A stretch of 64,000 bases of DNA from an uncultured Trueperaceae bacterium (lineage in GTDB: Bacteria; Deinococcota; Deinococci; Deinococcales; Trueperaceae), in assembly GCA_963815215.1 (NCBI GenBank), contig CAWFFU010000003.1, positions 992,001 through 1,056,000 on the forward strand, given 5' to 3'. Made by a program: the position numbers and the translations under genes. Of the stretch, positions 3,320-6,501 are shown in pieces. Each line of letters begins with the position of its first letter. Positions within the stretch are counted from its first letter, which is position 1. The notes below the pieces were generated by a model. It was not told the origin of the DNA and ran no database searches. It was given only the letters and a program-made list of their open reading frames with translations.

Positions 3320-3754
3320 GTGGCTCAGCTCAGCGACGGCGAGATCACGGAGCACTACGTAGTGGCGGTAGCGGCGGCCGTCTTCCGAGACGGGCGGGTG
3401 CTGGCCATGCGCCGCTCCGCCACCCGCCAGGCCGGTCCCGGCCTGTGGGAGACCCTCTCGGGCCGCCTGCGCCTGGACGAGGATCCCGTGGCGGCGGTGG
3501 CGCGCGAGATCACCGAGGAGTGCGGCCTGCGGGTGCGCGTGCACCCGCGGCCCGTCACCGCCTATCAGGCGCGCCGCGCCGGCGAGCCCATGGTGGTGGT
3601 GGTCTACCGAGCGGACGCCGAACCGGGCGAAGTGGTGCGCACCGACGAGCACGACGATCACGCATGGCTGACGCCGGAGGCGTTCGCATCCGTCACCACG
3701 CTGGCTCCGCTGGCGCAGGCGGTATCCGCCGCGGCGGCGCTGACGGAGGGCTGA
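3320..3754 (+). CDS. NUDIX hydrolase
   Basis: Nudix box GRLRLDEDPVAAVAREITEECGL and EH...W motif. GGAGG RBS. Confidence 0.85.
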   Translation: MAQLSDGEITEHYVVAVAAAVFRDGRVLAMRRSATRQAGPGLWETLSGRLRLDEDPVAAVAREITEECGLRVRVHPRPVTAYQARRAGEPMVVVVYRADAEPGEVVRTDEHDDHAWLTPEAFASVTTLAPLAQAVSAAAALTEG

Positions 3755-3763
3755 GTCCCGCCC

Positions 3764-4153
3764 ATGACGCGCGTCGAGGCGACCGAACGTCTGAGCGAGC
3801 TGGCGTTGCCTCCCGGAGGTTACGTCGTCCACGGCAGCGGCGCGCTGCTGCTCCGGGGCCTGATCGACCGCACCCGCGACCTGGACGTGCTGGCACGCGG
3901 CGACGCCTGGCAGGCCGCCTGCCGGCTGGCGGCGCCTCAGCGCGGCCTGAACGACCCGGTGGTCCGACCCGCGCCCGACCTCGAGATCTGGGGTGGCTGG
4001 CTGGGAGACGACGTCGACGCCCTGATCGACGGTGCCGAGCTGGTGGACGGTTGGCCCTGTGTCGAGCTGCGCGCGCTACTCGCCTTCAAGGAGCGCCTCG
4101 ACCGGCCCCAGGATCGCGAGCACATCGCGCTCTTGCGCGCCATGCTGGGCTGA
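3764..4153 (+). CDS. Small nucleotidyltransferase-fold hypothetical protein
   Basis: VVHGSGAL...TRDLDVL (GS plus DxD) and C-terminal K..LDRPQDREHI. Confidence 0.6.
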   Translation: MTRVEATERLSELALPPGGYVVHGSGALLLRGLIDRTRDLDVLARGDAWQAACRLAAPQRGLNDPVVRPAPDLEIWGGWLGDDVDALIDGAELVDGWPCVELRALLAFKERLDRPQDREHIALLRAMLG

Positions 4154-4212
4154 CCCGTCGTCCCGGGCGCGGCCGTCCGCAGCCGGGCCGGCGCGTCCCG
4201 GCGCCCCCGCCG

Positions 4213-4241
4213 TTGACACGCCCGCGGACGCCTGCTAGATT
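4213..4241 (+). promoter_or_regulatory. Sigma70-type promoter of the aspS leader
   Basis: TTGACA (4213-4218), 17-bp spacer, TAGATT (4236-4241) with an extended -10 TG. Confidence 0.8.
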
Positions 4242-4251
4242 ACCGCCCAAG

Positions 4252-4314
4252 ATGGGTGCGCCCCGGAACCTTATGGTTGACGACAATTTCCCCGCGAGGT
4301 GGCTCGGGGCGTAG
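4252..4314 (+). CDS. Putative aspS leader peptide MGAPRNLMVDDNFPARWLGA (alternative start at 4273)
   Basis: Short ORF just after the promoter, with GAC GAC AAT (Asp-Asp-Asn) at 4279-4287. It overlaps alternative hairpins. Confidence 0.7.
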   Translation: MGAPRNLMVDDNFPARWLGA

Positions 4315-4334
4315 GCCGCGGTTCGGCCCTTTGG

Positions 4335-4367
4335 ACACCCCGAGGTTCCCCTCGGGGTGTTTTTCTT
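4335..4367 (+). terminator. Attenuator terminator upstream of aspS
   Basis: ACACCCCGAGG-ttcc-CCTCGGGGTGT stem followed by TTTTCTT, directly before the aspS RBS. Confidence 0.85.
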
Positions 4368-4380
4368 GGAGGAGCGTAGG

Positions 4381-5673
4381 ATGCAGACCTTGACCGACGA
4401 GCGAACGCTCACACGCGCGCTGCCGACCCAGCTGGGCGAGACCGTGACCCTGCAGGGCTGGGTCCACAACCGCCGTGACCTGGGCGGCATCCAGTTCCTG
4501 CTGCTGCGCGACCGGAGCGGCCTGGTGCAGTGCGTGTTCGAGCACACCGAGCTGCCGTTGCACGAGAGCTGCGTGCGGGTGCGGGGCACCGTGGTCGCCA
4601 ACGAACGCGCGCCCGGTGGCGTCGAGGTGCAGGCCGACGGGCTGGAGGTCCTCAGCCGTGCGCTGGTCCCGCCGCCGGTGGAGATCTCCAAGGAGGAGTG
4701 GCACGCCAACCCCGAGACGCTGCTGGAGTACCGCCACATGACCGTCCGCGGGCTCAAGGCGCAGGCGGCGCTGAAGGTGCAGGCCGAGCTGGTGAGCGCC
4801 TTCCGCGCCTACCTCGATGCCCGTGACTTCACCGAGATCTTCACGCCCAAGCTGGTGGCCGCGGGCGCCGAGAGCGGCGCCAACCTCTTCGAGGTCGACT
4901 ACTACGGCAAGCGCGCGTACCTGGCGCAATCGCCGCAGCTCTACAAGCAGATCATGGTCGCGGTGTACGAGCGCGTCTACGAGGTGGCGCCGGTGTTCCG
5001 GGCCGAGCCCAGCCACACCACCCGGCACCTGGCGGAGTACCTCTCGCTCGACGTGGAGTTCGGCTTCATCCGCGACGAGGGGGACGTGATGGACCTGCAG
5101 GAGGGGCTGTTCAAGGCGATGATGGCGCGGGTGGCGGAGCGCTGCGCTCCCCAGCTCGAGCTGATGGAGGCTGCGGCGCCCCCGCTGGACCCGGCCATCC
5201 CACGCATCCCGTTGCTCGAGGCGCGCGAGCTCGTGGCCGAGCGCTACGGCCACCGGACCGGCGGCAAGGACCTCGACCCCGAGGCCGAGCGCCTGCTGGG
5301 CCGCTGGGCACGCGAGGAGCACGGCAGCGACTTCGTCTTCGTCACCAAGTTCCCGCAAGCGGCGCGCCCCTTCTACACCTACCCCGAGCCGGACGGCGAG
5401 CTGACGCGCGGCATCGACCTGCTGTTCCGCGGCGTGGAGATCACCTCCGGCGGGCAGCGCGTGCACGACTACGACATGCTGCTCGGAGAGTTGGAGAAGC
5501 GGCACATGGACCCGGAAGCCTTCAGCGGCTACCTCGACGTCTTCCGCCACGGCATGCCGCCCCACGGCGGCTTCGCGGCCGGAGCAGAGCGACTCACCGC
5601 CCTGCTGCTCGGCATCCCCAACGTCCGCTTCGCGCGCGCCTTCCCCCGCGACGGCAGCCGGCTCCAGCCCTGA
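4381..5673 (+). CDS. aspS: Aspartate--tRNA(Asp/Asn) ligase, non-discriminating archaeal-type AspRS
   Basis: OB fold GWVHNRRDLGG, RAPGG loop (His and Pro typical of non-discriminating enzymes), YLAQSPQLYKQ, FRAE, PFYT, EITSGGQR and GMPPHGGF..GAER. 430 aa with no GAD insert. Confidence 0.93.
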   Translation: MQTLTDERTLTRALPTQLGETVTLQGWVHNRRDLGGIQFLLLRDRSGLVQCVFEHTELPLHESCVRVRGTVVANERAPGGVEVQADGLEVLSRALVPPPVEISKEEWHANPETLLEYRHMTVRGLKAQAALKVQAELVSAFRAYLDARDFTEIFTPKLVAAGAESGANLFEVDYYGKRAYLAQSPQLYKQIMVAVYERVYEVAPVFRAEPSHTTRHLAEYLSLDVEFGFIRDEGDVMDLQEGLFKAMMARVAERCAPQLELMEAAAPPLDPAIPRIPLLEARELVAERYGHRTGGKDLDPEAERLLGRWAREEHGSDFVFVTKFPQAARPFYTYPEPDGELTRGIDLLFRGVEITSGGQRVHDYDMLLGELEKRHMDPEAFSGYLDVFRHGMPPHGGFAAGAERLTALLLGIPNVRFARAFPRDGSRLQP

Positions 5674-5855
5674 GCCGCGAGCGGCCTCGGGGCGCCGCGC
5701 GAGCGACCGCAGGTCCGAGCGCTTGCGTGCGCCGCCCGCTCGCCGGACGATTGCGCCCCGGGAACGCGGCCTGCGGAGCACGATGGGACGGCGTTCGCCC
5801 CCTGAAGACCGCGCACGTGCACGTTCCGAAAGCGGGTTCGCCCCAGACTAGGGGC

Positions 5856-6230
5856 ATGGCAGGGACGAGCCCCAGGGCCGACTGCGCATCGGCGCACCGT
5901 GCACGCGACGGCGCCGCTTCGGCGGGCGGCGCCCCCATGGTCGGGCCGGCCGCAACCTTGAGAGAGGCGCGAGTCGTTCCGCGGGGCCTTCGGAGCTGCC
6001 TCGAGCACGAGCTGGAGAACCTGCGGCGACTGCTGCGCTATCGCGGCCTGGAGCGCAGGTTCGGCGATCAGCTCGGGCCCGTCGACGAAGCCGTGCGGGA
6101 GGCGCTGGATGCAGGCTCCCGAACCCTCTCGCTATCCGCTCTGCGAACGATCACCGCGTTGACGACCGAAGTGAACCGCGAGCCTTCGAAGCGTGTGGCT
6201 TCCGGCGACGGCAACGCGGACCGAGCCTGA
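5856..6230 (+). CDS. Hypothetical protein, possibly degenerate
   Basis: Open frame with a helical-looking segment LEHELENLRRLLRYRGLE. No family recognised. Confidence 0.3.
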   Translation: MAGTSPRADCASAHRARDGAASAGGAPMVGPAATLREARVVPRGLRSCLEHELENLRRLLRYRGLERRFGDQLGPVDEAVREALDAGSRTLSLSALRTITALTTEVNREPSKRVASGDGNADRA

Positions 6231-6469
6231 GCCGCTCTCCGGCAACGGGCGACCGTCGGTTCGAAGCGTCCTCGCGGGCCGCTCTGCTGAGGCCTCGCCA
6301 GGGTCTGCGCCACCACCACCGGCCGGGTCACGGTCCGGGCGCGGCTTCGCCTTCGTAAGCATGTCCATGACGACGGCCTCAGCGCGCCTCCTGGTGCGCC
6401 TCCTGGGATGCCAAGCTCACGCCACTCCGTCGATCGGCCATCGAGCTGCCAGTACGTGCGGTGGCAGGA

Positions 6470-6501
6470 TTGACGGCCGATTGACGGCCCTCCGCTACGC
6501 T
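6470..6501 (+). promoter_or_regulatory. SARP-type activator boxes plus -10 upstream of the CsgG-like gene
   Basis: TTGACGG at 6470 and 6481 (11-bp period), 8-bp gap, then TACGCT at 6496-6501. Confidence 0.7.

Follow-up and report, generated by a model that had tools for sequence, protein, structure and literature searches.

A predicted leader-peptide attenuator with Asp and Asn codons upstream of aspS2, the gene for a non-discriminating aspartyl-tRNA synthetase, in Trueperaceae and related families

The aspS2 locus

We have analysed the region upstream of aspS2, a gene for a predicted non-discriminating aspartyl-tRNA synthetase (AspRS2), in a 64 000-nt stretch of DNA from an uncultured Trueperaceae bacterium (assembly GCA_963815215.1, contig CAWFFU010000003.1). 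The whole of this stretch, G000:C3:992001-1056000, is called the window below, and coordinates are positions in it, on the + strand unless stated. The host genome has a size of 3.3 Mb and a GC content of 70%. Between a promoter and aspS2 the window carries a 20-codon open reading frame (ORF) containing the codons GAC-GAC-AAT (Asp-Asp-Asn, or D-D-N), followed by RNA segments that can pair in alternative ways and by a terminator (Table 1). Comparison with the same region in relatives makes it likely that this element is a translation-coupled leader-peptide attenuator of aspS2, one responding to Asn and probably Asp charging.

The promoter matches the consensus at 10 of 12 positions, has an extended −10 TG (4233-4234) within its spacer and is the sole promoter-like site in 3500-6500 (shuffle mean 0.0). 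The leader ORF translates as MGAPRNLMVDDNFPARWLGA and has a second in-frame ATG at 4273. Its stop codon lies 66 nt before the ATG of aspS2, with the full terminator in between. The AspRS2 product scores 547.2 bits against NF003483, the NCBIfam model of aspartate--tRNA(Asn) ligase (cut-off 353), and 387.3 bits against TIGR00458 (cut-off 368.4). By these equivalog cut-offs, both passed, the regulated gene is classified as one for an archaeal-type, non-discriminating AspRS.

Table 1. Features of the aspS2 leader region in the window. RBS, ribosome-binding site.
Feature	Position	Strand	Details
Sigma-70-type promoter	4213..4241	+	−35 TTGACA 4213-4218; 17-nt spacer; −10 TAGATT 4236-4241
Leader ORF, 20 codons and TAG	4252..4314	+	ATG 4252; TAG 4312-4314
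Putative regulatory codons GAC-GAC-AAT (Asp-Asp-Asn), proposed stall site	4279..4287	+	Sequence; conservation in the family
Segment 1	4290..4298	+	Can pair with segment 2, −10.3 kcal/mol
Segment 2, 5′ strand of the antiterminator	4303..4312	+	Abutted by the leader stop TAG; with segment 3 −22.2 kcal/mol
Spacer hairpin GGCCG/CGGCC inside the antiterminator loop	4314..4328	+	−8.0 kcal/mol; sequence variable among relatives
Segment 3, strand common to antiterminator and terminator	4335..4345	+	Pairs with segment 2 or segment 4
Segment 4 (4350-4360) and U-tract TTTTCTT (4361-4367), 3′ half of the terminator	4350..4367	+	−23.5 kcal/mol; covariation in the family
RBS GGAGGAG (4368-4374) and aspS2 (ATG 4381, stop 5673)	4368..5673	+	430-aa predicted non-discriminating AspRS

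A search of Rfam over 3900-4700, at E-values up to 10, gave no T-box (RF00230) and no amino-acid leader or other cis-regulatory family. The best matches were partial ones to models of small RNAs (sRNAs), lying mainly over the terminator hairpin (21.6 bits vs a gathering threshold of 112, and 19.6 vs 49.5). The original prediction, made from the DNA of the window, had placed the promoter, the 20-codon ORF, the GAC-GAC-AAT codons and segments 1-4 exactly where we find them. Its reading of aspS2 as a gene for a non-discriminating AspRS agrees with the profile scores, and its claim that no T-box is present agrees with the Rfam search.

On the + strand upstream of the leader are an alpha-amylase-like gene, a gene for a Cys/Met pyridoxal-phosphate enzyme and a NUDIX gene, then a 129-aa ORF ending at 4153; downstream of aspS2 are an unknown ORF and a CsgG-like gene. 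Two longer open frames overlap the region, both with the appearance of GC-rich artefacts. The first (4240-5781, − strand, 513 aa) is antisense to aspS2, and the second (3445-4314, + strand, 289 aa) shares the frame of the leader across the intergenic region. The 20-codon leader is hidden in a plain ORF list because this 289-aa frame covers it.

Conservation of the leader ORF and its Asn and Asp codons

We found AspRS2 orthologues in 40 relatives. Within the family 112 of 128 genomes gave one, and within Deinococcales, the sole order of Deinococcota covered here, 217 of 221; genome G118 is counted in the family and order tallies only and stands outside the upstream comparison. Upstream DNA was compared at 136 aspS2 loci, 84 from Trueperaceae and 52 from four other Deinococcales families, picked by hit lists and contig room with content not considered. 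Leader ORFs were counted under two rules, both blind to content. In tally 1 the leader was the ORF ending nearest to a detected terminator, with an ATG start and 7-50 codons. In tally 2 it was the ORF beginning at the first ATG located 5-12 nt past the −35/−10 match nearest to the gene.

The original prediction implied that relatives would have a conserved leader ORF with Asp and Asn codons, and this is what the comparison gave. Under tally 2 a promoter-adjacent short ORF precedes aspS2 at 114 of the 136 loci, in five families; 113 of these 114 leaders have Asn codons and 109 have Asp codons. Trueperaceae have the ORF at 66 of 84 loci (65 with Asn, 65 with Asp and 57 with an Asn-containing run of Asn and Asp codons, abbreviated N/D run), and the four other families at 48 of 52 loci (48 with Asn, 44 with Asp and 46 with such a run). 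Under tally 1, 69 of 71 terminator-bearing loci have the ORF, and Asn-containing N/D runs occur in 58 of these 69 leaders vs 10 of 158 control short ORFs taken from both strands of the same regions.

The residue composition of the leaders points the same way. Asn and Asp make up 9.7% and 10.8% of leader residues in tally 1. In tally 2 the values are 8.2% and 11.4% (155/1360 for Asp) for Trueperaceae, and 20.3% and 16.5% (86/521 for Asp) for the other families. Among all codons of the host genome, 1.94% are for Asn and 5.47% for Asp.

To compare the family element position by position we used alignment A1, with 53 distinct sequences kept from the 84 family loci. Left out of it were 15 loci where the terminator was missed or the contig ended (L004, L009, L021, L024, L052, L060, L065, L067, L070, L081, L082, L084, L085, L089 and L095), three removed by hand, the family element not being apparent (L014, L068 and L090), and the loci without the element. 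The conserved triplet in A1 is AAT in 46 sequences, GAT in four, GAC in two and AAC in one, and it shares the frame of the stop codon in 52 of 53 elements. Between the ATG and this triplet there are 15 different spacings, ranging from 18 to 84 nt, all except one divisible by three. The N-terminal part of the leader peptide is unconserved.

The profile built from A1 matches 67 of the 84 Trueperaceae loci (nhmmer) and 0 of 16 loci of the other families. At the other-family loci an N/D-rich ORF at the promoter is followed by a hairpin, and a T-tailed terminator is present in 13 of the first 16 scanned. What the families of the order have in common is the codon content and the layout, not the RNA sequence.

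About 15 of the 84 Trueperaceae loci are without the element (L016, L020, L066, L073, L080, L092, L097, L018, L061, L063, L064, L068, L090, L098 and L099). At some of them aspS2 abuts the upstream gene or shares an open frame with it (582 aa in L016). At others a promoter sits directly on the aspS2 start, which leaves aspS2 leaderless. The upstream region of one genus, and of some low-GC genera, is unrelated.

We also considered whether asnS, gatB or aspS1 of the host genome share the leader. This was rejected, as their upstream regions have no such N-rich leader; the three genes start directly at promoter-like −10 hexamers (TAGACT for asnS and TAAGCT for aspS1).

Alternative RNA helices

The whole leader of the window is more stable than its shuffled versions (z = −2.54; 2 of 200 shuffles as good). 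Segment 1 pairs with 4303-4309 of segment 2 in a hairpin of 7 bp with a 1-nt bulge. The full segment 2 pairs with 4335-4344 of segment 3 at 9 of 10 positions and encloses the GGCCG/CGGCC hairpin, and segments 3 and 4 form 11 perfect pairs around a TTCC loop. When the RNA is folded up to 4349 with a ribosome masked at the AAU codon, the 2:3 antiterminator is predicted. If the masked ribosome is instead placed at the stop codon, or is left out, the prediction is a free segment 3 or the terminator. The RBS of aspS2 is unsequestered in the predicted folds.

Both helices in which segment 3 takes part are supported by covariation in A1. The terminator is 89.7% paired and has compensatory changes in 9 of 11 pairs; for four of the five measures, none of 500 shuffles attains the observed value. 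The 2:3 antiterminator has a conserved 7-bp core, each pair of which is a standard pair in 48-53 of 52-53 sequences, and three outer pairs specific to the genus of the window. Double changes occur in six pairs of the core, a value reached in 0 of 500 shuffles, while the percentage paired is reached in 26 of 500. With segment 4 cut off, the RNAalifold consensus is the 2:3 helix. The alignment gave no consensus helix involving the D-D-N stretch in the family, and the idea that this stretch lies inside a conserved helix was rejected on that ground.

In the corresponding alignment of Deinococcus-type loci, A2, a candidate antiterminator has the G of the leader stop as its first base. Its pairing is 96.4% yet invariant, and therefore uninformative. 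The A2 terminator is 90.1% paired, with some covariation.

At three loci of a Thermus-like genus, g19 (L035, L215 and L217), the hairpin comes after an Asn-containing leader and leads into CCAA... and then the RBS; the U-tract is absent. The switch may act differently in this genus, or termination may need no U-tract.

Start site, geometry and codon choice

The leader ATG in the window begins at the 11th base past the −10 hexamer and has no Shine-Dalgarno sequence before it. Four close relatives also have their ATG at the 11th base, and a sister genome has two tandem ATGs at that position. At related loci the ATG lies 6-11 nt past the −10, mostly at the 8th-9th base, and in 53 of 66 family loci it lies at the 8th-10th base, which is the usual place for transcription to start; the leader mRNA of the family would therefore be leaderless, in agreement with the start site mapped in Deinococcus deserti. 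The transcript of the window, with its start placed by the promoter, probably carries two to three extra bases before the leader ATG.

A ribosome covers about 15 nt of mRNA 3′ of its P-site codon. In A1, 15 nt separate the conserved triplet from segment 2, and the stop codon lies 3 nt past the segment 2 core. With a footprint of this size, a ribosome at AAU would cover segment 1 and leave segment 2 free, and one at UAG would cover segment 2.

The leaders also differ from genes in codon choice. In the host genome AAT makes up 6% of Asn codons and GAT 18% of Asp codons. Trueperaceae leaders have 72% AAT vs 20% in the adjacent aspS2 genes, and 43% GAT vs 23%; for the other families the values are 43% vs 16% and 41% vs 14%. 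An attractive interpretation of this bias is selection, at the stall site, for wobble codons that are read slowly, and the leu leader offers a precedent for the use of a rare codon. That the U-ending codons tune the sensitivity of the sensor is speculation on our part.

Most leaders end in TAG, which is the stop codon of 52 of the 66 family leaders and of 36 of the 48 from the other families. In both RNA scaffolds the G that follows TA adjoins or lies inside a pairing strand. This may explain the preference for TAG; an effect of release factors is also possible.

Proposed mechanism and the evidence against it

Our direct observations are the sequence elements and their conservation, covariation in two helices, the conserved frame and the codon content. 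From them we infer a transcription start, translation of the ORF, stalling, a footprint geometry and a regulatory outcome, as follows. Transcription would start a few bases before the leader ATG, and a ribosome would load on the leaderless, or nearly leaderless, 5′ end and trail the RNA polymerase. When Asp-tRNA(Asp) and Asn-tRNA(Asn) are both plentiful, the ribosome would reach the UAG codon and cover segment 2. Segments 3 and 4 would then pair, and the hairpin with its U-tract would end the transcript near 4362-4368, ahead of the RBS of aspS2. A shortage of either charged tRNA would stall the ribosome with GAC, GAC or AAU in the A site and a footprint reaching to about 4297-4299. It would thereby cover segment 1 and leave segment 2 free to pair with segment 3 once the latter emerges; the terminator would be blocked, and the polymerase would continue into aspS2. 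With no ribosome on the RNA, segment 2 would be held by an upstream partner (segment 1 or, in the window, 4257-4266), with termination by default. The AspRS2 so produced would make Asp-tRNA(Asn) for GatCAB and could also charge tRNA(Asp).

We regard a translation-coupled attenuator of this kind as the likely function of the element. A wider proposal is that one leaderless peptide reads both Asp-tRNA(Asp) and Asn-tRNA(Asn) throughout the order, with the scaffold swapped and the codons kept, and with a sensor possibly sensitised by U-ending codons. Taken as a whole, this proposal is tentative, and we consider it doubtful. As a further speculation, readthrough may also depend on tRNA modification, as both tRNAs are in the queuosine-modified set.

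Several observations weigh against the attenuator. First, the rule of tally 2 found no promoter-adjacent ORF at 18 of the 84 family loci, and the element is therefore dispensable; at 3 of these 18 it is merely cut off by the end of the fetched stretch or of the contig. Second, related genomes are not independent, so that the counts given above are descriptive and overstate the number of independent events. Third, initiation in the window needs an unusual start site or tolerance of a 5′ extension of 2-3 nt. Fourth, a simple terminator scan called 0 sites in 3500-6500. Our guess is that the terminator was missed because its stem is lengthened by G-U pairs into the T-run; a second scan, our own, gave a stem of 11, a loop of 4 and the tail TTTTCTTGG.

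The remaining points concern RNA folding and metabolism. The 1:2 stem is 62.7% paired in the family, and its covariation is no better than that of shuffles; it was rejected as a conserved part of the switch and is genus-specific at best, judging from the alignment. The four-segment switch of the original prediction is accordingly supported for the 2:3 core and for 3:4, both of which covary, and is not supported for 1:2. Much the same can be said of its wider claim of a trp/his-type attenuator with stalling at D-D-N: conservation of the ORF and its codons, the frame, covariation and the masked folds argue for it, and the segment 1:2 pairing does not.

In the window the minimum free energy fold of the leader joins segment 2 not to segment 1 but to 4257-4266. 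This helix of 10 bp (4257-4266:4304-4313; −26.2 kcal/mol for 4256-4314) pairs leader codons 2-5 with segment 2 and the stop codon. The 4257-4266 strand is unconserved in relatives, and this alternative 5′ partner is genus-specific. In the full leader at equilibrium the terminator is favoured even with a stalled ribosome; antitermination must therefore be kinetic, as in classical attenuators.

Finally, the host genome has asnS, gatB and a bacterial-type aspS, and a search of it gave no asnA. It has an asnB-family gene (G000:C7:19587-21281; 496 bits, cut-off 267) whose product, going by this match, may be a tRNA-independent asparagine synthetase or an amidotransferase paralogue, beside the AspRS2/GatCAB route. 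The tRNA-dependent route therefore need not be the sole source of asparagine.

Alternative explanations

The strongest alternative is the same attenuator sensing Asn only, with the Asp codons as bystanders kept, e.g., by sequence context. Asn is the more universal of the two residues (113 of 114 leaders vs 109 for Asp), some Thermus-like leaders have Asn and no Asp, and the role of AspRS2 in Deinococcus and Thermus is reportedly asparagine formation. Asp is nevertheless well above its 5.5% share of genome codons in the leaders of the family as well as in those of the other families. Moreover, GAT or GAC replaces AAT at the conserved position in 6 of 53 sequences, which argues that Asp can substitute for Asn, and the enrichment of GAT over GAC parallels that of AAT over AAC. 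We therefore consider an Asn-only sensor improbable.

The conserved GAYGAYAAUU could also be read as RNA. In a switch made of RNA only (a riboswitch, a T-box-like element or a protein-binding site), the role of GAYGAYAAU would be to contact a ligand or an anticodon, and the ORF would have no part of its own. The stretch is indeed conserved in the family at the nucleotide level, third codon positions included, and distant relatives of the synthetase in candidate-phyla-radiation bacteria have T-box-like leaders (see below). Against this stand the lack of any cis-regulatory match in the Rfam search of 3900-4700, the ATG at the promoter in 114 of 136 loci and a frame kept through 15 length variants. 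The other families, in addition, retain the codons and not the RNA sequence, and the stretch lies outside the conserved helices. An RNA-only switch is highly improbable on this evidence.

The short ORF might instead act after transcription, by delivering ribosomes to aspS2, through an active peptide, or by way of a trans-acting sRNA from the terminated leader. Some Thermus-like hairpins do sit directly before the RBS without a U-tract, and terminated trp leaders are described as acting as sRNAs in Sinorhizobium (PMC7968998). In the window, however, the leader stop is 66 nt away from aspS2, a full terminator lies between them and the RBS is left unsequestered in the predicted folds; the N-terminal part of the peptide is, moreover, unconserved. 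We find this explanation very unlikely.

A constitutive terminator or insulator of the upstream operon, with the ORF a chance frame, would suit a GC-rich genome with its many spurious open frames and the co-directional gene upstream of the hairpin, yet it is hardly conceivable given the promoter between the stop of that gene (4153) and the hairpin, the presence of the element before aspS2 at 114 of 136 loci in five families, the scarcity of N/D runs in control ORFs (10 of 158 vs 58 of 69 leaders) and, in Deinococcus deserti, an upstream gene on the opposite strand (PMC4007540, Table S2).

Significance

What is new here is the order-wide conservation of the codons despite turnover of the scaffold, the frame test, the bias to U-ending codons and the finding that the 1:2 stem is unconserved. 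To our knowledge, no textbook leader-peptide attenuator exists for asparagine. AspRS2 together with GatCAB is the reported route to this amino acid in Deinococcus and Thermus. If AspRS2/GatCAB is the asparagine route here as well, a translation-coupled sensor on aspS2 would be a feedback loop of tRNA-dependent asparagine synthesis.

The five families also amount to a natural experiment, in which the Asn and Asp codons, the promoter-adjacent ATG and the terminator are retained and the RNA sequence is swapped. The element offers a reporter of Asn- and Asp-tRNA charging in Deinococcota and a test case for coupling of leaderless translation to transcription.

Comparison with known systems

The closest known case is in the same phylum. 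For D. deserti, de Groot et al. (2014; PMC4007540) listed 14 leader peptides, all putative and leaderless, as candidates for attenuation. One of them, Deide_10019 in their Table S9, is rich in Asn and Asp and is assigned, as a putative leader peptide, to Deide_10020, the gene for the non-discriminating AspRS; the transcription start site is mapped at the A of the leader ATG. The remark in the original prediction that no description of such a leader was known for aspS in the lineage is therefore wrong at the level of the phylum. For Deide_10019 the paper gives a peptide and a prediction, and neither a structure nor a comparison or test. One genome of our sample encodes a peptide identical to Deide_10019.

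For the host genome, a search of sequencing runs gave two RNA runs, with 4% of the sampled words. Read counts from Table S2 of the same paper bear on termination in D. deserti. In the untreated library the leader (45 nt) has 117 sense reads and the gene (1290 nt) has 118; in the TEX-treated library the numbers are 724 and 36. These counts fit premature termination, with the reservation that the libraries may favour 5′ ends.

The window element and Deide_10019, as tabulated, are alike in having an archaeal-type AspRS2 gene, an Asn/Asp-rich short ORF at the 5′ end of the transcript and a proposal of attenuation. The Deinococcus-type loci in our sample share the layout of ORF and hairpin. They differ in scaffold and peptide, and the Trueperaceae family profile does not match them. 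In the family of the window the leader has 15-38 codons, D-D-N lies ~8 codons before the stop and the stop is 3′ of the antiterminator strand. In the Deinococcus type the leader has 12-21 codons, the N/D run lies 2-3 codons before the stop and the antiterminator strand starts at the stop codon. Since the device was already predicted in D. deserti in 2014, as the table entry indicates, the window element is no new category; it has an RNA scaffold of its own.

Our search of the open literature gave no description of an aspS2 leader besides PMC4007540; subscription journals were outside this search, and a further description there is possible. The main text of Naville and Gautheret (2010; PMC2965389) mentions neither aspS, nor Deinococcus, nor asparagine, and in a Shewanella paper (PMC2659441) an aspS leader motif is listed and no more.

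Scanning the host genome under strict criteria, which required a promoter, an ATG within 4-13 nt of it, an ORF of 5-45 codons and a terminator, gave five candidates, one being the aspS2 leader. The other four, all outside the window, are at G000:C3:639778(+), C3:517109(−), C3:423727(−) and C11:327154(+). The genes after them are by eye leuC-, pheS- and ilvB-like and one unknown, and the leuC-type leader is Leu-rich. This suggests that leaderless leader peptides are used more widely in the host genome, as in D. deserti. Leaderless Cys-rich short ORFs are described as attenuators in mycobacteria (bioRxiv 10.1101/834739) and are alike in that an ORF with codons for a single amino acid controls downstream genes; they belong to a different phylum and concern a different amino acid.

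The T-box leaders (RF00230) of aspS and asnS in Firmicutes resemble the proposed attenuator in their terminator/antiterminator switch and in raising the synthetase when tRNA is uncharged. They differ in sensing uncharged tRNA by RNA-tRNA pairing, without translation. Upstream of related archaeal-type AspRS genes of candidate-phyla-radiation bacteria (Paceibacterota/Saccharibacteria-like metagenome-assembled genomes, with 42-45% identity), three of the four loci scanned have T-box matches below the gathering threshold of 93 bits: L172:216-335, L176:192-346 and L179:175-342, with 54.9, 36.5 and 36.2 bits and E-values of 4e-10 to 3e-5. The same enzyme family thus seems, on these matches, to be under T-box control in those genomes and under leader-peptide control in Deinococcota.

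Classical attenuators are those of the E. coli trp, his, leu, thr, pheA and ilv operons, and pheST provides the precedent for a synthetase. With these the element shares an ORF with cognate codons, mutually exclusive antiterminator and terminator, a stop codon at which a ribosome completing the peptide would mask the antiterminator strand, and rare codons. Unlike them, it has a leaderless or nearly leaderless ORF without a Shine-Dalgarno sequence, no conserved 1:2 pause hairpin and no Rfam leader family. It differs also in having two kinds of regulatory codons, which match both of the tRNAs charged by the regulated enzyme.

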